Virus record (IMG/VR): IMGVR_UViG_2671181134_000002 | Span: 1-6,437 of that record | Direction: 5' to 3' (one strand) | Source of the DNA: a virus | Taxonomy: Duplodnaviria; Heunggongvirae; Uroviricota; Caudoviricetes | DNA length: 6,437 bases | Part shown: in pieces, positions 1 through 6,437 of the stretch | Layout of the letters: every line of letters begins with the position of its first letter | Numbering within the stretch: position 1 is the stretch's first letter | The notes under the pieces: generated by a model | Seen by the model: the letters and a program-made list of their open reading frames with translations, nothing else | Databases searched by the model: none | What the model was told of the DNA's origin: nothing | Program-made: the position numbers and the translations under genes

Positions 1-518
1 ACGAACTGGTTGTTAAAGGGATAAATAATTACCCGGATAAGATTACTGTTACTGTGGCACTGGAAACGGGTGGGTATACGTCACTGTTGTTGCCAAATGT
101 GGTGATTGATCTTGATCGTGTTGAAGGTGCCCCGCTGGAGTTTTACGAAGCTGAGGCGAAAAAGAAGGCGAAGCAGTTTTTCATGGATATTTCTGCCGGG
201 TTATGTGAAGGGGATGAGCAGTCGCCGGAAAAGCGCCCCATAATTTTAGAGGCGCAGGATGTGTTGATAACCTACAGAGGAAAACTACCGGGAATAATTA
301 CTGGTTCTCTGAAGACGCCACCGACGGCATTGCGGTCAGAAAACGATGATATTGAATCACGCATTGAAAAACTGGAGTGCTATATCGCTGAATTGAAAAA
401 AAGCACCCCAACAAAAAATGAGGTGCTTGCAGCAGATGAAATGAAAGAAACTATTCTTGATCGCGCGGCGCATCTAAGCTGCGCTTCACTGTTGAAAGAG
501 CATCTTCAGCAGCCTTGA
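1..518 (+). CDS. Hypothetical protein, 3' portion only (ORF open to the window start; N-terminus lies upstream)
   Basis: Frame 3 is open from position 3 with no stop until TGA at 516-518, so the track's Met at 54 is probably internal. Hydrophilic, charged, helix-rich translation with no motif I recognise. Region is visibly more AT-rich than the terminase genes. Confidence 0.5.
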   Translation, partial: ELVVKGINNYPDKITVTVALETGGYTSLLLPNVVIDLDRVEGAPLEFYEAEAKKKAKQFFMDISAGLCEGDEQSPEKRPIILEAQDVLITYRGKLPGIITGSLKTPPTALRSENDDIESRIEKLECYIAELKKSTPTKNEVLAADEMKETILDRAAHLSCASLLKEHLQQP

Positions 519-690
519 GGAATCTTTTATCATCACGAGCAACTGTCTTTGGTATTTCTTTAATTAGATGTTCCATTTCGGCGATCAGGTAATCTGACAC
601 AGCGTTATTTTTACTTAGTGCATCCATTGCTTTGATTATCTTTGCGAGGCAGCCATCTCGCATTGTTGAGTTTACGCCAGTGCCCACCAC
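451..690 (-). CDS. Hypothetical small protein (70-79 aa), doubtful; convergent with and overlapping the 3' end of the 1-518 ORF
   Basis: Track ORF begins with a GTG at 690; first ATG is at 663. Translation is amphipathic and helix-like, but I find no Shine-Dalgarno before either start and it overlaps the opposite-strand ORF by 68 nt. Confidence 0.25.
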   Translation of the reverse strand: MVGTGVNSTMRDGCLAKIIKAMDALSKNNAVSDYLIAEMEHLIKEIPKTVARDDKRFLKAAEDALSTVKRSLDAPRDQE

Positions 691-751
691 TGGCGGGCTG
701 AAGACTTAACATATCCAGGGATTCGGAACCGATAAATCCTGATAAATATCC

Positions 752-1285
752 ATGAACGCAAAAATCAGATACGGCCTGTCGGCTGTCGTTCTGGCGCTGA
801 TTGCCGCAGGGGCTTCTGCGCCTGAAATCCTCGACCAGTTTCTGGATGAAAAGGAAGGTAACCACACCACGGCATACCGTGATGGTGCGGGTATCTGGAC
901 CATCTGCCGTGGAGCCACCCGGGTGGATGGTAAGCCTGTGATTCCTGGCATGAAGCTGTCGAAGGAAAAATGCGACCGGGTTAACGCTATCGAACGGGAT
1001 AAGGCGCTGGCATGGGTGGCGAAAAACATCAGAGTGCCACTGACCGAACCTCAGAAAGCGGGGATCGCGTCATTCTGTCCGTACAACATTGGTCCCGGTA
1101 AGTGTTTCCCGTCGACGTTTTACAGACGAATTAATGCTGGTGATCGCAGGGGAGCATGCGAGGCGATTCGCTGGTGGATTAAGGACGGTGGCAGGGACTG
1201 CCGTATCCGCTCAAATAACTGTTACGGTCAGGTATCCCGGCGTGATCAGGAGAGCGCGCTGGCGTGCTGGGGAATCGACAGATAA
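752..1285 (+). CDS. R: SAR endolysin (phage lysozyme, R21/T4-lysozyme-like, GH24)
   Basis: 177 aa. N-terminal hydrophobic Gly/Ala-rich signal-anchor-release segment (YGLSAVVLALIAAGASA). Catalytic E-x8-D-x5-T arrangement in EGNHTTAYRDGAGIWTICRG. Central and C-terminal blocks (RRINAGDRRGACEAIRWW, RRDQESALACWG) resemble phage 21 R as I recall it. Confidence 0.9.
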   Translation: MNAKIRYGLSAVVLALIAAGASAPEILDQFLDEKEGNHTTAYRDGAGIWTICRGATRVDGKPVIPGMKLSKEKCDRVNAIERDKALAWVAKNIRVPLTEPQKAGIASFCPYNIGPGKCFPSTFYRRINAGDRRGACEAIRWWIKDGGRDCRIRSNNCYGQVSRRDQESALACWGIDR

Positions 1286-1375
1286 GAAGAATATTTTGCT
1301 GAAAAATGACGTTGGCCAACGCGGGCGGATAACACGAAATCCTGCGAACTGGCAAAACCTAAGTGAATAAAAGTA

Positions 1376-1416
1376 AAAACCCCGTTTGTTGGCAGCAAGC
1401 GGGGTTTTGTGTTTCT
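1376..1416. terminator. Putative intrinsic terminator, possibly bidirectional
   Basis: Perfect 9-bp stem AAAACCCCG (1376-1384) / CGGGGTTTT (1400-1408), followed by a T-rich tract TTTTGTGTTTCT and preceded by an A-tract. Confidence 0.5.
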
Positions 1417-1441
1417 GACCTTGGATAAGGCAAGGGAAAAC

Positions 1442-1624
1442 ATGGAAAAGTATAAACGAATTCTGTTGAGGTTGACTATGAAAAACGGCCTTGAACTGAA
1501 AGCGCCTGTAACTGATGACATCAGCAGAGCGCTGGCTTTTGCTATTAAGTGGGTGGCGGTCGGTATTGCTGTGTCTCCGATGCTGTATGGACTAGCAAAA
1601 CTGGTCATTGCGTTGAAATCGTGA
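1442..1624 (+). CDS. Small membrane protein inside the lysis cassette (possible holin/antiholin-like or lysis accessory protein)
   Basis: Track ORF 1409-1624, but 1409 lies inside the terminator hairpin. ATG at 1442 is preceded by AAGGGA about 6 nt upstream. 60 aa with a charged N-terminus and one long C-terminal hydrophobic segment (AFAIKWVAVGIAVSPMLYGLAKLVIAL). Confidence 0.4.
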   Translation: MEKYKRILLRLTMKNGLELKAPVTDDISRALAFAIKWVAVGIAVSPMLYGLAKLVIALKS

Positions 1625-1636
1625 AGAGGATTAAGC

Positions 1637-1780
1637 ATGTCAGACAAGCGTCATAACGCTGGCGAAGATCCTCTGTGTAATCGTCGGCATTTCATTTTCA
1701 CTAATGCTGGTTGCTATTTTTCTTTCCCTGGGCTGGATGATGTTGTCTTCGTCGGGGATGCTGGGGTGAGGGGGATATGA
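1637..1780 (+). CDS. Hypothetical 47-aa ORF, translationally coupled to Rz
   Basis: ATG 1637 preceded by AAGAGGA; stop TGA 1778-1780 overlaps the Rz ATG (1777-1779) as ATATGA. Below the ORF-track size cutoff; translation [47 protein letters not shown] has no recognisable motif. Confidence 0.2.
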
Positions 1781-2244
1781 ACCGTGTTCTGTGTGTGGTG
1801 ATTATTGTCCTGCTGGTGGCCTGTGGTGCGCTTAGTCTGGGGCTGAATCATTACCGCGATAACGCCATCACCTACAAAGCGCAGCGAGATAAAAAAGCCA
1901 GAGAGCTGGAGCTGGCAAACGCAACCATTACTGATATGCAGGTGCGCCAGCGCGATGTTGCTGCGCTCGATGCAAAATACTCGAGGGAATTAGCTGATGC
2001 GAGAGCTGAAAATGAAACTCTGCGTGCTGATGTTGCCGCTGGTCGTAAGCGCCTGCGGATCAACGCCACCTGCCACGGTACCGTGCGTGAAGCCACCGGC
2101 ACCTCCGGCGTGGATAATGCAACCGGCCCCCGACTGGCAGACACCGCTGAACGGGATTATTTCACCCTCAGAGAGCGGTTGATGCTGATGCAGAAGCAGC
2201 TGGAAGGGGCACAGGACTATATCCGCACTCAGTGCCTGAATTAA
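1777..2244 (+). CDS. Rz: Rz i-spanin (inner-membrane spanin subunit)
   Basis: 155 aa. N-terminal transmembrane helix ([20 protein letters not shown]) followed by a charged coiled-coil periplasmic domain; sits just downstream of the endolysin; contains an embedded +1-frame lipoprotein ORF. GAGGGGG Shine-Dalgarno precedes the ATG. Confidence 0.85.
1997..2182 (+). CDS. Rz1: Rz1 o-spanin (outer-membrane lipoprotein), embedded in Rz in a different frame
   Basis: Signal peptide with lipobox L-V-V-S-A-C, then a short proline-rich mature domain ([34 protein letters not shown]). True start may be the internal ATG at 2012 ([15 protein letters not shown]). Confidence 0.8.
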
Positions 2245-2246
2245 CA

Positions 2247-2272
2247 GAGCCAGCTTAATCGCTGGCTTTTTC
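2247..2272 (+). terminator. Putative intrinsic terminator downstream of Rz
   Basis: Stem GCCAGC (2249-2254) / GCTGGC (2261-2266) with a 6-nt loop, followed by TTTTT (2267-2271). Begins 3 nt after the Rz stop. Confidence 0.45.
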
Positions 2273-2319
2273 ATATCTGAATTTCACCGCGCATCTCACG
2301 CGCATATCACATCCCCGAG

Positions 2320-2411
2320 CCTTTCAGAAAGTTGAGCCTGAGAACTGCCGTATATGGTGGCGACCATCTCGGGGCGGCTTTTCTGTGAGACAGGCTCAAT
2401 TTTCTGAAAGG
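2320..2411 (+). promoter_or_regulatory. Near-perfect 21-bp inverted repeat bracketing the rha 5' leader; right arm overlaps the rha ribosome-binding site
   Basis: CCTTTCAGAAAGTTGAGCCTG (2320-2340) versus CAGGCTCAATTTTCTGAAAGG (2391-2411): 20 of 21 positions complementary, 50-nt spacer. Right arm contains AAAGG about 9 nt before the rha ATG at 2421. Confidence 0.4.
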
Positions 2412-2420
2412 TAAAACGCG

Positions 2421-2987
2421 ATGAACTATCCGACGATTGTTGACGGTATTGATTTTCGCCAACTGGTAACAGCGGCAGATGGCGAACCAATAACAGACTC
2501 TTTTCAGATCGCTAAGGCGTTTGGTAAGCGTCATGCGGACGTATTGAGGGCGCTGAAAAATTGCCATTGCTCTGAAGATTTCCGGAGAGCGCATTTTTGC
2601 GTTGCCGAAAAAATCAATGAGTTAGGGATTTTCGACAAGAAGCAGATTTACTACCGCATGGACTTTAGCGGCTTCGTTATGCTGGTTATGGGATTTAACG
2701 GGGCAAAAGCTGATGCCGTTAAAGAAGCCTATATTAATGCCTTTAACTGGATGTCCGCTGAACTCCGTAAGTTCAGTGAAAGTTATGAAGCTGAACGCAA
2801 CGCTGTAATGCTGGAGTACATGAAAGAGAAAGATGTTGCCAGTATGTCAGGTCGTTTGCTCAATCGCTGGGGCAGGGTGAAGAAGCCTCAGTTGCTGGCA
2901 AGGCTGGACAGGCTGGACAGGCTGGACAGGCTGGAGCAGCAGGGGCAGATTGCGTTACCCGGATTTGATAAAGGCATTTCAGCCTGA
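2421..2987 (+). CDS. rha: Rha-family phage regulatory protein
   Basis: 188 aa. N-terminal region (DGEPITDSFQIAKAFGKRHADVLRAL) matches the conserved Rha/ORF6 N-terminal domain as I recall it. Variable C-terminus carries an (RLD)n repeat. Confidence 0.8.
   Translation: MNYPTIVDGIDFRQLVTAADGEPITDSFQIAKAFGKRHADVLRALKNCHCSEDFRRAHFCVAEKINELGIFDKKQIYYRMDFSGFVMLVMGFNGAKADAVKEAYINAFNWMSAELRKFSESYEAERNAVMLEYMKEKDVASMSGRLLNRWGRVKKPQLLARLDRLDRLDRLEQQGQIALPGFDKGISA
2894..2938 (+). repeat. 9-bp tandem repeat GCTGGACAG inside rha (three perfect copies flanked by two degenerate ones)
   Basis: Perfect copies at 2903-2911, 2912-2920 and 2921-2929; degenerate copies GCTGGCAAG (2894-2902) and GCTGGAGCA (2930-2938). 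Encodes LARLDRLDRLDRLEQ in frame. Confidence 0.85.
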
Positions 2988-3177
2988 CATAGCCATGCGC
3001 CGTATCGTCGCCGTATTCCTGCATTAACAGAGACCGCAGCCCGACAGGGAGACTCCTCTGCGCGAGTGTGCGGGGATAATCAAAAACGATGCACACCGGG
3101 GTTTACCGCGTTAACGGAGCGCGGCGTTGTCCCCTCATAGTCGCCTGTCCGGTGCGATGGTGGAAGAAACCGAACGT

Positions 3178-3419: not shown

Positions 3420-3785
3420 ATGGCTGAGCTTCGTACACTCCAGAGCAGAATCAAAACACTGAATACCCGACGGGTGAATATTCTGAAGGGGGAACAGCGT
3501 CGTGTCAGTGGCAGTGCACGTGTTTCCCTCAAGCGTCATATCTGGCTCAGGGACGCCGGGCAGTGCTGTCTCTGTGGTCGTGTGGTTGACCTCTGTGACA
3601 GTGAACTTGATCACCGAATTGCACTTCAGTTCGGTGGTGGTAATGAGGAGACGAATCTCTGGACGCTCTGTACCGAATGCCATCGACAAAAGTCTGCTCG
3701 TGAAGCGGCGGGTGGTATGCCGGACCCGACGCTGCCGGAGGTGTCCGGAGGTAGTGGCAGAGCGGACGACATCATCGGACTGTAA
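3420..3785 (+). CDS. HNH endonuclease (phage packaging-associated)
   Basis: 121 aa. Two Cys pairs (CCLCG, CTECH) flank the HNH core SELDHRIALQFGGGNEETNLWTLCTECHRQK. Sits immediately upstream of the terminase genes, as in HK97-type cos phages. Confidence 0.85.
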   Translation: MAELRTLQSRIKTLNTRRVNILKGEQRRVSGSARVSLKRHIWLRDAGQCCLCGRVVDLCDSELDHRIALQFGGGNEETNLWTLCTECHRQKSAREAAGGMPDPTLPEVSGGSGRADDIIGL

Positions 3786-4074: not shown

Positions 4075-4785
4075 GTGCTGACAACGCAAAAACGAAAATT
4101 TGCGCTGGCGCTCATGTCCGGGAAAAACAAAACAGCGTCAGCCATTGCCGCCGGTTATTCGGCGAAGACCGCCAGGGTTAAAGGCTCACAGCTGGCAAAA
4201 GATCCGGAGGTGCTTGCGTTTATAGCCCGTAAACAATGCGAGACGGTGGAGGTGGATGAGGTTCCTGTTTACCGGCAGAAAAAATCAGAGCAGGAGGATA
4301 AACCCCGTCGCCGTGAGGCGGCTGCAATACCACAGCCGGACGAAAACAATCCGGAGGTGCTTGCGTTTATAGCCCGTAAACAATGCGAGACGGTGGAGGT
4401 GGATGAGGTTCCTGTTTACCGGCAGAAAAAATCAGAGCAGGAGGATAAACCCCGTCGCCGTGAGGCGGCTGCAATACCACAGCCGGACGAAAACAATCCG
4501 GAGATGCCACCGTCCGCGGTGATGTCTCCTGGTATTGAATATATGGAGGATGGTCTTCCCGATCCGGTGAAAGCCATGGGGCGGATCCTGGTGGAAAACC
4601 TCTGCATTGATCCGAAACTGGCACTGGATGCGGCCTGGCGTCTGGCGCAGTTCACGCACCATAAAAAAGGGGATACCGGGAAAAAATCGGCAAAAGGTGA
4701 TGCCGCGAAAAAAGCGGCTAACCGTTTTGCTGTGCCACCGCCACCCCGACTGGTGGTGAATAACGATAATGAGGGAAACGGATGA
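4075..4785 (+). CDS. terS: Terminase small subunit (P27 / Terminase_2-type)
   Basis: GTG start preceded by GGGAGGAGG. N-terminus KRKFALALMSGKNKTASAIAAGYSAKTARVKGSQLAKDPEV carries the AGYSAKTA helix-turn-helix signature of this family. Stop overlaps the terL start as ATGA (4782-4785). Contains an internal 49-aa perfect duplication. Confidence 0.85.
   Translation: MLTTQKRKFALALMSGKNKTASAIAAGYSAKTARVKGSQLAKDPEVLAFIARKQCETVEVDEVPVYRQKKSEQEDKPRRREAAAIPQPDENNPEVLAFIARKQCETVEVDEVPVYRQKKSEQEDKPRRREAAAIPQPDENNPEMPPSAVMSPGIEYMEDGLPDPVKAMGRILVENLCIDPKLALDAAWRLAQFTHHKKGDTGKKSAKGDAAKKAANRFAVPPPPRLVVNNDNEGNG
4204..4497 (+). repeat. Perfect 147-bp direct tandem duplication (2 copies) inside terS
   Basis: 4204-4350 and 4351-4497 are identical base for base by my alignment. 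In frame, duplicating PEVLAFIARKQCETVEVDEVPVYRQKKSEQEDKPRRREAAAIPQPDENN. Junctions carry the 8-bp microhomology ATCCGGAG at 4202-4209, 4349-4356 and 4496-4503. Confidence 0.9.
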
Positions 4786-6437
4786 TACCTGTATGGAGCA
4801 CAGCCTGCCCGGACTGGGCAGAGCGCCTGAAAAAGGGGCTGTCGATTATTCCGGATCCGATTTATCCGGACGAGGCCGCACATGCCCTGGCGATTTTTAA
4901 ACAACTGCGGATAGTGGATGCACCTGGTAGCCCTACGTTCGGGGAGTCCTGTGCACCGTGGGTGTTTGACCTGGTGGCGGCCCTGTTTGGCTCCTACGAT
5001 GCGCAGACCGGTGTACGCCATATCAAGGAAGTTTTTATCCTTATCCCCAAGAAAAACAGCAAGTCCACGCTGGCTGCCGGGATCATGATGACGGCGCTGT
5101 TACTGAACTGGCGGCAGGCGGCGGGCTACACCATTCTGGCCCCGACCGTGGAGGTGGCGGCTAACGCCTTCAACCCTGCCAGGGATATGGTTCGACGGGA
5201 CGATGATCTGGATGACCTCTGTCAGGTGCAGACACATATCCGGACCATCACCCATCGGGTGACGGACACCACCCTGAAGGTGGTGGCAGCCGATCCGAAT
5301 ACGGTGTCCGGTATCAAGTCCGTGGGGACACTGATTGATGAACTGTGGCTGTTTGGCAAGCAGTACAAAGCGGAAGACATGTTACGTGAAGCCATCGGCG
5401 GGCTTGCCTCCCGTCCGGAAGGATTTGTGGTGTATACGACCACCCAGTCGAATGAACCGCCCGCCGGGGTGTTCAGACAGAAACTGCAGTACGCCCGGGA
5501 TGTGCGCGACGGCAAAATTCATGATCCGCACTTTCTGCCGGTGATATTTGAACACCCTCCTGAAATGGTGGAAAGCGGAGCTCACCTGCTGATGGAAAAC
5601 CTCGCCATGGTCAATCCGAATCTCGGCTATTCAGTGGATGAGGCTTTTCTGTGCCGGGAGTACCGTAAAGCCCGGGAAGCCGGTGAAGATACATTCCGGG
5701 GGTTCATGTCAAAACACGCCAATGTGGAAATTGGTCTTGCCCTGCGTTCTGACCGCTGGGCGGGTGCGGATTTCTGGGAGCAGCAGGGCAGGCGCGTCAG
5801 CCTGGACGATATCCTGCAGCGCGCTGATGTGGTGACGGTGGGGATTGACGGCGGGGGCCTGGATGATCTGCTGGGAATGTACGTGATTGGCCGTGACAGG
5901 GAAACCCGCGAATGGCTGGGCTGGGGCCATGCCTGGGCGCATGAAACCGCGGTGGTCAGACGGAAGAGTGAGGCATCCCGTTTTCAGGATTTTGTGGCCT
6001 GTGGAGACATGACGATTGTCCGTCGGGTCGGGGATGACACGGCGGAAGTGGCGGAGTATGTGCGTCGTATTCATGAGGCTGAGTTACTGGATCATATCGG
6101 TATTGACCCGTCAGGTGTGGGGCAGATTCTGGATTCACTGGCGGAAGCCGGGATCCCCGACGGAATTGTTGTGGGGATAAGCCAGGGCTGGAAGCTGGGC
6201 GGGGCCATCAAAACCACCGAGCGCAAACTGGCTGAGGGAGTGCTGGTGCATGGTGGTCAGCCACTGATGGCCTGGTGCGTTGGCAATGCCCGGGTGGAGC
6301 CTAAAGGTAACGCCATCCTTATTACCAAACAGGCCAGCGGACGGGGGAAAATTGACCCGCTGATGGCGCTGTTCAATGCGGTATCCCTGATGTCCCTGAA
6401 TCCGGAGCCCAAAAAGAAAGAATATGCGGTTTTTTTC
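4782..6437 (+). CDS. terL: Terminase large subunit, 5' 552 codons (open to the window end)
   Basis: Frame open from ATG 4782 to the end of the window, so absent from the ORF track. Walker A-like VFILIPKKNSKSTLAAG, Walker B-like TLIDELWLF, and nuclease-domain motif VVTVGIDGGGLDD. Start overlaps the terS stop. Confidence 0.9.
   Translation, partial: MIPVWSTACPDWAERLKKGLSIIPDPIYPDEAAHALAIFKQLRIVDAPGSPTFGESCAPWVFDLVAALFGSYDAQTGVRHIKEVFILIPKKNSKSTLAAGIMMTALLLNWRQAAGYTILAPTVEVAANAFNPARDMVRRDDDLDDLCQVQTHIRTITHRVTDTTLKVVAADPNTVSGIKSVGTLIDELWLFGKQYKAEDMLREAIGGLASRPEGFVVYTTTQSNEPPAGVFRQKLQYARDVRDGKIHDPHFLPVIFEHPPEMVESGAHLLMENLAMVNPNLGYSVDEAFLCREYRKAREAGEDTFRGFMSKHANVEIGLALRSDRWAGADFWEQQGRRVSLDDILQRADVVTVGIDGGGLDDLLGMYVIGRDRETREWLGWGHAWAHETAVVRRKSEASRFQDFVACGDMTIVRRVGDDTAEVAEYVRRIHEAELLDHIGIDPSGVGQILDSLAEAGIPDGIVVGISQGWKLGGAIKTTERKLAEGVLVHGGQPLMAWCVGNARVEPKGNAILITKQASGRGKIDPLMALFNAVSLMSLNPEPKKKEYAVFF

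Follow-up and report, generated by a model that had tools for sequence, protein, structure and literature searches.

The window analysed here, a 6,437-nucleotide stretch of Caudoviricetes DNA, encodes a SAR-type endolysin with no holin gene beside it, and a terminator and small ORFs separate this gene from the spanin gene Rz. The initial annotation described this as an atypical lysis cassette, so we asked whether the phage lacks an adjacent holin and what the intervening genes are. We consider, with a probability of roughly 0.88, that the window holds the usual lysis module of a Shiga-toxin-type (Stx) lambdoid E. coli prophage, with the holin gene just outside it and dispensable passengers as the genes in the slot between the endolysin and Rz. 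The features are as follows.

1 to 518, plus strand: ydfR (DUF1327) gene, PF07041 at 2.7e-22, with its first 13 nt cut by the window start
329 to 697, no strand: segment inserted or substituted between ydfR and the endolysin gene in comparison with Stx2a phage WGPS2 (a gap in the WGPS2 alignment row)
451 to 663, minus strand: 70-aa hydrophilic ORF (79 aa from the GTG at 690), phrog_18136 at 6.9e-41
752 to 1285, plus strand: SAR-type endolysin R, a muramidase like phage 21 R, 177 aa, Phage_lysozyme PF00959 at 3.4e-24
1286 to 1372, plus strand: conserved non-coding element AAAAATGAC-N17-GGATAACACGAAATC..., directly after the endolysin stop codon
1376 to 1408, no strand: intrinsic terminator hairpin, 15 pairs, about -21 kcal/mol
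1442 to 1624, plus strand: gene for a 60-aa tail-anchored membrane protein with a C-terminal TMD, phrog_1115 at 1.4e-42
1449 to 1478, minus strand: sigma-70-like promoter match TAGTCA-18-TATACT, within codons 3-12 of the 60-aa ORF
1637 to 1769, plus strand: frameshifted gene for a 43-aa single-TMD peptide, phrog_4906, with its ATG at 1637, an extra G at 1650, and the conserved frame resuming at 1653-1769
1777 to 2244, plus strand: Rz, i-spanin, PF03245 at 1.2e-50, N-terminal TMD at residues 4-22 (KD19 2.95)
1997 to 2182, plus strand: Rz1, o-spanin, embedded in the +1 frame of Rz, PF06085 at 1.1e-21, lipobox VSAC
2421 to 2987, plus strand: Rha/antirepressor-type gene downstream of Rz, PF09669 and PF10549

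Endolysin, spanins and the predicted holin upstream of the window

The N-terminus of the endolysin, MNAKIRYGLSAVVLALIAAGASAPEIL, has the features predicted for a SAR helix: basic residues come first (K4 and R6), the helix is weakly hydrophobic (KD19 1.91) and rich in G, A and S (10 of the 20 positions in residues 7-26), and Cys is absent. It also contains a Pro after ASA, an arrangement known to block signal peptidase I. The catalytic triad of phage 21 R (3HDE), E-x8-D-x5-T, has its aligned counterparts in E35, D44, and T50, and the protein matches 3HDE/3HDF (R21) and 4ZPU (RrrD) at 1e-16. It is 97% identical to the endolysin of Sakai Sp10 and 88% identical to RrrQ of K-12. The muramidase domain, the aligned triad, and the N-terminal helix together bear out the original description of a SAR endolysin, and the Rz/Rz1 spanins reported with it are present as an embedded two-component pair, both members being matched in Pfam. 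In phage 933W, the R protein has served as a SAR endolysin in experiments (PMC9239132), and pairing of a SAR endolysin with a pinholin has been predicted for nearly all Stx phages (PMC8136144).

As noted initially, the 233 bp upstream of the endolysin gene hold no forward ORF of holin size (none of at least 30 aa starts in 519-751), and the forward ORF that ends at 518 is hydrophilic; we identify it as a DUF1327/YdfR member. A holin gene is missing from the window because of where the window was cut, 13 nt into ydfR. All three genomes nearest to the window (97.7-99.1% identity) encode the class II holin WP_000284506.1 directly upstream of ydfR, ending 17 nt before window base 1, and from these relatives we infer that a holin gene lies upstream of the window as well. 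In the nearest relative (L001, 5769-5984), which also has a Q-family antiterminator gene upstream, the product is a 71-aa holin that begins MYQMEK and matches PF04971 (P21 holin S, Phage_holin_2_1) at 7.2e-33. The relatives' holin also matches phrog_9876 and phrog_20, both labelled "holin," and it has a dual translational start, at Met1 and Met4 of MYQMEK, with the 68-aa form given in the O157:H16 annotation. As judged from its sequence, this dual start is predicted to give an antiholin and a holin of the phage 21 pinholin family.

The order holin-ydfR-R was found in 8 of the 8 inspected contexts that carry this lysozyme family, among them K-12 Qin, O157 Sakai Sp10, Stx2a phage WGPS2, and phage PhiR12_2. 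The complete order would be Q ... sialate esterase, DUF1378, DUF826, holin S, ydfR, SAR endolysin R, variable slot, and Rz/Rz1. This layout is the standard Stx-/Qin-type arrangement. Thus, the suggestion that a holin lies further upstream, outside the window, agrees with what the relatives carry, while the claim of an atypical cassette without an adjacent holin does not hold, and the layout as first described is of little weight, since the order is the common one.

Judging from family membership, lysis most likely works as in phage 21. The endolysin would be exported by Sec, and its N-terminal SAR helix would keep it in the inner membrane in an inactive state; the pinholin would then trigger and depolarise the membrane, upon which the endolysin would be released and refold, and the Rz/Rz1 spanin would disrupt the outer membrane. 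The cassette shares with that of phage 21 a holin (in the relatives) of the P21 holin S family with a dual start, an R21-like SAR N-terminus with an E-D-T triad, and an embedded two-component spanin pair. It differs in having ydfR between S and R and passenger DNA between R and Rz, and its endolysin is just distantly similar to phage 21 R (E of 1e-16 across the domain).

The late region of Stx phages and Sakai Sp10 (S - ydfR - R - ant - 48-aa ORF - Rz/Rz1) shares with the window an identical order of S, ydfR, R (97% amino acid identity), Rz/Rz1, HNH, and terminase genes, together with a small transmembrane peptide gene just before Rz. In contrast to Sp10, the window has a terminator and the 60-aa gene in place of ant, its small peptide gene carries a frameshift, its ydfR has a replaced 3' end, and an antirepressor-type gene instead follows Rz. 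The Qin prophage of K-12 (essQ - ydfR - rrrQ - rzpQ/rzoQ) has the same holin-ydfR-endolysin order and an endolysin 88% identical to that of the window, but its endolysin and spanin genes are not separated and its spanin belongs to another family (DUF2514).

Small genes in the variable slot between the endolysin and Rz

The stretch between the endolysin and Rz genes is known to vary in content. In WGPS2 and Sakai Sp10 the slot is occupied by ant, in two further loci (L004 and L006) by other combinations of small ORFs; there is no such gap in K-12 Qin, and phage PhiR12_2 (recorded host K-12) has the order S-DUF1327-R-60aa-43aa-Rz. On our preferred reading, the slot would carry interchangeable passenger DNA dispensable for lysis, consisting here of the terminator, the 60-aa gene, and the frameshifted 43-aa gene, and in 933W/Sakai-type phages of ant and an intact small peptide gene. 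Our best guess is that these passengers encode small proteins of the inner membrane whose late expression relies on transcriptional read-through.

The 47-aa ORF described as coupled to Rz (1637-1780) is not the conserved frame but a frameshift artefact, of which only the first four codons (MSDK) are genuine. The extra G at 1650 (the window has AAGCGTCAT where relatives have AAGC-TCAT) shifts the frame, and relatives encode at this position a conserved 43-aa transmembrane peptide whose frame stops 8 nt before the Rz ATG. The dN/dS ratio is 1.25 to 3.1 for the 47-aa frame and mostly 0.2 to 0.5 for the transmembrane frame; only among the more diverged pairs does the transmembrane frame have the lowest ratio of all three frames. 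The exact 79-nt allele of the window, with the extra G, is present in 139 of 1208 matching records, and most copies are without the G. Since the gene is frameshifted in the window and in these 139 records, and since Salmonella cassettes do not have it, the 43-aa peptide appears to be dispensable. A frameshifted small ORF before Rz can mislead annotation pipelines and readers alike.

The 60-aa protein has a basic N-terminal motif, YKRILLRLTMKNG, an N-terminal part with a net charge of +3, and, by hydropathy, one C-terminal hydrophobic helix at residues 38-56 (KD19 1.90). Compared with Salmonella homologues at ~21-24% nucleotide divergence, its gene has a frame-specific dN/dS of 0.13 to 0.17, and diverged family members keep the protein motifs. 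These comparisons of sequences clearly point to a real gene under purifying selection, in line with the single-helix membrane protein proposed initially. They also bear on the idea that the small ORFs before Rz arose by chance in non-coding filler. This is true of the 47-aa frame, which has a dN/dS above 1 and exists only through a 1-nt insertion, but as an account of the small ORFs it is hardly credible given the constraint on the 60-aa ORF and its kept motifs and given that dN/dS for the 43-aa transmembrane frame is below that of the 47-aa frame in all pairs but one.

Homologues of the 60-aa protein fall into 121 clusters, which come without exception from Escherichia or Salmonella and carry only the name "hypothetical." The protein has no match in Pfam (E up to 1), NCBIfam, or PADLOC. 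A profile search for remote homologues among 1.84 billion cluster representatives retrieved only 18 proteins, all of them members of this small family and none tied to a named one, and a search of species-representative genomes with a protein pattern and a degenerate DNA pattern returned no relatives, only three chance matches in Clostridia. Members of the family occur with four unrelated endolysin types and also among tail genes: relatives accompany a soluble GH19 endolysin with a lambda-S-type holin, as well as GH108 endolysins, and are found after tail-fibre genes and inside a baseplate cluster. The family has no representative in the Sakai Sp10, WGPS2, and K-12 Qin cassettes, which have the same S and R.

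The initial annotation had proposed that the 60-aa protein is a relocated or unconventional holin, an antiholin, or a releasin-like factor. In a wider form, the protein, with or without the 43-aa peptide, would be a lysis factor of one of these kinds or a spanin regulator. The gene is tightly packed in the cassette (12 nt from the next ORF, which itself ends 8 nt before Rz), most close homologues lie between an endolysin gene and Rz, and the product has a single TMD under purifying selection; lysA of phage P2 is a precedent for an accessory membrane protein encoded between endolysin and spanin genes. However, a complete pinholin/antiholin gene is already present, as seen in the relatives, and many cassettes that share S, R, and Rz have no member of the family, and members stand alongside GH19 and lambda-S-type holin, GH108, tail-fibre, and baseplate genes. 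The protein itself has no DUF2730, no holin match in Pfam (E up to 1), and no charged C-terminal tail, and the likeness of its TMD to holin TMD2 covers 16 residues at an E of 0.006, a composition-level similarity only. We therefore regard a lysis factor as very unlikely; the lack of a family match, the working cassettes without the gene, and its varied neighbours all speak against the initial proposal. Because relatives occur with four endolysin types and with tail genes, we conclude that the protein does not serve SAR endolysins as a holin or releasin. The earlier view of the ORF at 1442-1624 thus stands in so far as it is a real membrane-type gene under purifying selection and fails in so far as a holin gene was found upstream in the relatives.

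Specific roles were considered and rejected. A holin typically has a charged, hydrophilic C-terminal domain after its TMDs; the 60-aa protein ends 2-3 residues after its single TMD (...LVIALKS) and has its charged part at the N-terminus. A required endolysin partner would not be missing from cassettes with the same S and R or have relatives among tail genes. Derivation of its TMD from holin TMD2 was set aside, as the similarity is at the level expected from TMD composition alone. A releasin was rejected for want of DUF2730 and of an acidic cytoplasmic domain, and because the TMD is C-terminal rather than N-terminal. The 99-aa releasin of phage Mu, gp25, carries DUF2730 and has its TMD at the N-terminus (N-out, C-in) and an acidic cytoplasmic domain of 73 aa, and Mu has no holin (PMC9239132). 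The two proteins are alike in being small, membrane tethered, and encoded near a SAR endolysin, but the 60-aa protein differs from gp25 in its C-terminal TMD, its basic N-terminus, its lack of DUF2730, and the presence of a pinholin.

Returning to the passenger reading, we note that the word "passenger" may understate a real role of the 60-aa gene in the lytic cycle, because purifying selection is clear and placement in the late operon is near constant. The slot contains members of two families of very small membrane proteins that occur widely in the lysis cassettes of E. coli and Salmonella prophages, with clear purifying selection on the 60-aa family and weaker selection on the 43-aa family. 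Both are cheap targets for testing in plaque-forming phages such as PhiR12_2, and a search of the literature on ydfR/essQ/rrrQ and on lysis-cassette morons brought up no work on them.

The terminator and a candidate antisense RNA

The non-coding element at 1286-1372 is conserved in E. coli and Salmonella, where it follows SAR lysozyme and GH19 endolysin genes, and it also precedes ant in WGPS2 and one other locus (L009). It may act as a module linker or as a promoter. The hairpin after it, reported initially as terminator-like, is predicted to be strong; it keeps its position across 10 lineages, with 4 stem pairs in which both partners have changed and pairing is retained. It has an A-run upstream and a T-run downstream, so that bidirectional termination is possible. 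The terminator lies 25-60 nt upstream of the 60-aa-family ORF in every context and lineage, tandem copies included, a fixed spacing that is unusual for a classical moron, where the terminator comes after the gene. The 269-bp segment of terminator plus ORF matches 1715 of 5426 complete E. coli genomes, which makes the layout a common one, and its occurrence in PhiR12_2 indicates that it is compatible with a working cassette. In lambda, Q-modified RNA polymerase reads through intrinsic terminators, and for this reason the hairpin would not split the cassette in lytic growth.

No plus-strand promoter match was found in window positions 1-2500, nor was there one between the terminator and the 60-aa ORF, a gap too short to hold one. 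On the minus strand, the sigma-70-like site at 1449-1478 suggests a hypothetical antisense RNA of ~70 nt that would end at the terminator. The match recurs at the same position and strand in four of five diverged loci (L029, L027, L023, and L007) and is missing in L030, so it is shared by 5 of 6 lineages including the window. Each of these five 400-nt regions contains exactly one sigma-70-like site, where 0.3 to 0.5 would be expected. The RNA predicted from 1443-1366 (78 nt) folds at -21.8 kcal/mol, with a z score of -3.6.

These features raise the alternative that the terminator, leader, and 60-aa ORF form a self-contained mobile module held down by a cis-antisense RNA. The minus-strand RNA would start in codons 3-12 of the ORF and end at the bidirectional terminator, and production of the membrane protein would have to await antiterminated late transcription strong enough to overwhelm this RNA. 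We consider this tentative and rather unlikely. It is favoured by the constant place of the terminator before the ORF, by the covarying stem, by the single promoter-like site per region, always on the minus strand and at the same position, by the absence of plus-strand promoter matches in those regions, by the folding score of the predicted RNA, and by a product that is small and hydrophobic like type I toxins. However, the promoter hexamers lie inside codons for the conserved motif YKRILLRLTM, where synonymous changes show selection at the protein level, so the match may be a by-product of coding, and L030 is without it. No match for a toxin promoter was found in window positions 1-2500 or in the five related 400-nt regions, which is atypical for a type I system. 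An Rfam search of the whole window (E up to 1) returned only a spurious snoRNA match and, on the terminator, the rimP leader, at 25 bits versus a gathering score of 47. Among the Sakai Hfq-CRAC peaks that we checked (EcOnc11 and EcOnc33, and Sp4 for EcOnc35 and EcOnc52), none lies on such a module: EcOnc11 is just downstream of Rz, EcOnc33 is at the 3' end of the esterase gene, and the peaks listed for Sp4 all lie outside the interval from its endolysin gene to Rz. EcOnc11 is probably one multi-copy site with EcOnc10 and EcOnc12.

The known prophage small RNAs AsxR, AgvB, and Pas were also considered and rejected as candidates; they lie between toxin or esterase genes and the holin gene, not between R and Rz.

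Units of terminator, leader, and 60-aa-type gene follow endolysin genes or tail-fibre genes in some places and lie among genes for the baseplate in others. It is unlikely, in our view, that the gene belongs to an undescribed family of mobile units of enterobacterial prophage late operons, each made of a bidirectional terminator, a short leader, and a gene for a tail-anchored YKRILLRLTMKNG protein, and silenced in lysogens by a cis-antisense RNA. If this were true, the protein would be made only late in lytic growth and could influence the integrity of the membrane or the timing of lysis, or have a toxin-like action. The locus would then resemble P22 sar RNA/ant and hok/sok-like loci, but only if the hypothetical antisense RNA is real, in that the RNA starts in the 5' end of its target, covers the ribosome-binding site, and ends at a nearby terminator; with type I toxin-antitoxin loci it would also share a small membrane protein as the target. 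It differs from P22 sar/ant and from type I loci in that no promoter was found for the 60-aa gene and no sequence similarity links it to a known family.

Replacement of the ydfR 3' end and the gene after Rz

Alignment with LZSFT34 and WGPS2 showed that the normal 3' end of ydfR is replaced by foreign sequence from about position 329 on, and in relatives PGAP calls the gene a pseudogene with a "missing C-terminus." The segment 329-697 is present over at least 80% of its length in just 44 of 5426 E. coli genomes. A terminator scan found a terminator-like hairpin at 428-401, on the minus strand, after the minus-strand 70-aa ORF. A PADLOC search for defence systems gave no match for this ORF, ydfR, the Rha-type gene, or either small protein. 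The Rha-type gene has a leader, CGCATCTCACGCGCAT (about 2283-2310), that matches the one preceding ant in WGPS2, where ant occupies the endolysin-Rz slot. At the spot corresponding to 451-663, other phages carry different minus-strand ORFs.

The lysis cassette and its predicted holin

Some part of the window was matched in 5204 of 5426 complete E. coli genomes, at least 80% of it was covered in 70 genomes (the best three at 99.1, 98.9, and 97.7% identity), and Stx1a- and Stx2a-converting phages matched it at 93 to 95% across approximately 78% of its length. The window is a lambdoid prophage late region with the following features:

1-518, plus strand, ydfR/DUF1327, 5' end cut by the window
451-663, minus strand, small hydrophilic ORF
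752-1285, plus strand, endolysin, lysozyme family
1442-1624, plus strand, 60-aa ORF
1637-1769, plus strand, damaged small ORF
1777-2244, plus strand, Rz
1997-2182, plus strand, Rz1, embedded in Rz
2421-2987, plus strand, Rha/antirepressor-type gene
3420-3785, plus strand, HNH endonuclease
4075-4785, plus strand, small terminase
up to the right end, plus strand, large terminase, running off the window

The initial annotation had called this cassette atypical for want of an adjacent holin. Its statement about the 233 bp before the endolysin gene holds, as a scan of positions 519 to 751 found no forward ORF of at least 30 aa. The nearest relative, LZSFT34, encodes a class II holin of 71 aa at 5769-5984; its ydfR begins at 5988 and its position 6001 is the counterpart of window base 1, so that the holin gene ends 17 nt ahead of the window start. 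This holin, which has a dual start (Met1/Met4), belongs by sequence to the phage 21 holin S family (PF04971, 7.2e-33). The second and third best genomes carry the identical holin protein accession in the same place. LZSFT34 also has a gene for a Q-family antiterminator upstream. The order holin-ydfR-endolysin also occurs in K-12 Qin (essQ-ydfR-rrrQ-rzpQ/rzoQ), Sakai Sp10, Stx2a phage WGPS2, an O157:H16 strain, an O10:H32 strain, and phages PhiR12_2 and vB_EcoS-783R2. The holin thus seemed to be missing because the window was cut just after its gene, which by comparison with these relatives is predicted to lie just outside, as the annotation had itself offered as an alternative. Its observations were largely accurate, but its central inference was not supported: the cassette has the ordinary order of S21-type holin, ydfR, SAR endolysin, variable slot, and Rz-Rz1, which K-12 and Stx phages were already known to share. 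What remains of interest is a possible antisense RNA and two widespread, uncharacterised families of very small membrane proteins.

The assignment of the endolysin to the SAR type was sound. The protein matches PF00959 at 3.4e-24, and phage 21 R (3HDE/3HDF) and RrrD are among its closest relatives of solved structure. E35, D44, and T50 align with the catalytic triad, and the N-terminus (MNAKIRYGLSAVVLALIAAGASAPEIL) is a G/A/S-rich helix of weak hydrophobicity with two basic residues ahead of it and no Cys. It is 97% identical to the Sakai prophage Sp10 endolysin and 88% to K-12 RrrQ. SAR endolysins and pinholins were predicted in almost all of 279 Stx phages surveyed (PMC8136144), and the 933W R protein served experimentally as a SAR endolysin (PMC9239132). 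The window endolysin differs from that of LZSFT34 (6752-7285) at 9 of 177 residues in a genome otherwise 99% identical and is nearer to the Sp10 protein (5 differences), a small mosaic patch within a nearly identical prophage.

A variable slot between endolysin and Rz

The window and WGPS2 are collinear to approximately position 1372 and again from approximately 1640; between these points WGPS2 carries ant (570 bp) and the window a terminator and the 60-aa ORF. K-12 Qin has no endolysin-spanin gap at all, and other E. coli prophages have differing small-ORF combinations in the slot. The 269-bp segment 1372-1640 has matches in 1715 of 5426 genomes, with at least 80% of its length in 1042. The slot is therefore variable, and its filling with terminator and 60-aa ORF is common. 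Directly past the endolysin stop codon, approximately 85 noncoding nt (1286-1372; AAAAATGAC-N17-GGATAACACGAAATC) are kept in E. coli and Salmonella after both SAR lysozyme and GH19 endolysin genes and stand before either the terminator module or ant; this element may serve as a promoter or as a linker for recombination. The anti-sRNA AgvB has its core, GATAACAC, at the 5' end as well, perhaps by coincidence.

Against Salmonella homologues at approximately 21 to 24% nucleotide divergence, the 60-aa ORF has a dN/dS of 0.13 to 0.17, compared with 0.7 and approximately 5 in the other two frames, and so is a real gene. All 121 clusters of homologues are of Escherichia or Salmonella origin and bear the name "hypothetical," and searching 1.84 billion representatives with a profile returned only 18 proteins. 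The motifs shared across the family are YKRIL(L/M)R(L/F)TMKNG, which is N-terminal and basic, a DAPVTxEIS linker, and YG.AK, conserved within a single C-terminal helix. The window protein, called single-helix by the annotation, has one hydrophobic helix, at its C-terminus. The annotation's proposed reading of it as a relocated holin or releasin-like factor finds no footing in the protein, which has neither the charged C-terminus of holin type nor any defining feature of Mu releasin (PMC9239132). Among the compared loci, relatives come after several kinds of endolysin gene: SAR lysozyme, alongside an S21-type or HP1-type holin (L009, L011); soluble GH19, alongside a lambda-S-type holin (L010); GH108, alongside two other holin families (L020-L022, L024); and an unclassified type of 138 aa (L023). 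Others come after tail-fibre genes (L007, L008, L027), one lies within a baseplate cluster (L030), and tandem paralogues stand beside a sialate esterase (L018). This range of contexts argues against a function specific to SAR endolysins.

The GH108 cassettes, which also carry Phage_holin_8 and Phage_holin_3_7, encode a 51- to 60-aa lipoprotein (lipobox LVGC; L020-L022 2806-2961, L024 ~2840-3010) after the two small transmembrane genes. No recognisable Rz follows those genes, and these loci yielded no spanin call; perhaps the lipoprotein is an outer-membrane lysis component that has escaped recognition. In two database proteins from short contigs, the 43-aa peptide described below (P0091) or the N-terminal half of the S21-type holin (P0120) is fused to the 60-aa protein's C-terminal helix; these could be assembly artefacts or true recombinants at a short stretch where the TMDs are similar (W-[AV]-A-[IV]-G).

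In relatives, a 43- to 48-aa peptide with one strongly hydrophobic helix (phrog_4906) ends 8 nt ahead of the Rz start. At this gene the window and its three closest relatives read AAGCGTCAT, where others read AAGC-TCAT, and the extra G at 1650 shifts the ATG-initiated frame off the conserved one; PGAP annotates what is left as a protein of 38 aa that begins at a nonstandard start. The transmembrane frame has a dN/dS mostly of 0.2 to 0.5, and the 47-aa frame that had been described as coupled to Rz has 1.25 to 3.1. That ORF is a frameshift artefact, and its ATGA overlap with Rz is a by-product. Of 1208 matching records, 139 have the exact 79-nt window allele; the extra base is absent from most copies.

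Terminator and possible antisense RNA

The terminator-like hairpin reported between endolysin and Rz was confirmed at 1376-1408 and is a strong one (15 pairs, approximately -21 kcal/mol). A strong hairpin stands 25 to 60 nt upstream of the 60-aa-family ORF in every lineage and context, with four stem pairs changed on both sides and pairing kept, and the terminator travels with the family. In lambda, Q-modified polymerase reads through terminators; by analogy, the hairpin should not separate R from Rz during lytic growth. A plus-strand promoter scan of window positions 1 to 2500 gave no match, so expression of the small genes and Rz probably requires antiterminated late transcription.

On the minus strand, a sigma-70-like site was found at 1478-1449, within codons 3 to 12 of the 60-aa ORF. 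Four of five diverged relatives (L007, L023, L027, L029) likewise have just one promoter-like hit, matching this one in strand and position, where 0.3 to 0.5 would be expected per 400-nt region; the -10 boxes are TATACT or TATAAT and the -35 boxes TAGTCA, TGGTCA, TTGTCA, or TTGGCC. The site points at the upstream, putatively bidirectional terminator, predicting an antisense RNA of 65 to 95 nt. Such an RNA, approximately 70 nt here and folding in prediction with a z of -3.6, would cover the ribosome-binding site, end at the terminator, and account for the terminator always preceding the ORF. We consider its existence unlikely and the evidence weak, since the hexamers overlap the codons for the family's most conserved motif, in which synonymous changes reflect selection on the protein, one lineage lacks the site, and neither Rfam nor the Sakai Hfq-CRAC peaks that were examined gave evidence of such an RNA.

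Other variable sites

At the ydfR-endolysin junction, a 329-697 segment, of which at least 80% is found in only 44 of 5426 genomes, replaces the normal ydfR 3' end. It bears the opposite-strand 70-aa ORF 451-663 (phrog_18136, 6.9e-41) with its own minus-strand terminator-like hairpin (428-401). Other phages have unrelated minus-strand ORFs at this junction, indicating a second insertion hot spot within the lysis cassette.

Downstream of Rz, the Rha/antirepressor-type gene is preceded at 2283-2310 by the leader CGCATCTCACGCGCAT(A/C)TCAC. The same leader precedes ant in the endolysin-Rz slot of WGPS2 and a Salmonella prophage (L009), which suggests that an antirepressor cassette moves between that slot and the post-Rz slot. 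The Rha-type gene contains 3.9 copies of a 9-bp repeat (2901-2935) encoding LDRLDRLDRLE, and the protein lengths (188 aa here, 182 aa in relatives) show that the copy number varies. The small terminase gene has a perfect-looking 147-bp tandem duplication at 4202-4507 (2.1 copies, 99% match), which preserves the reading frame and repeats 49 aa located after the Terminase_2 N-terminal domain, giving 236 aa compared to 187 aa (564 nt) in the three closest genomes.
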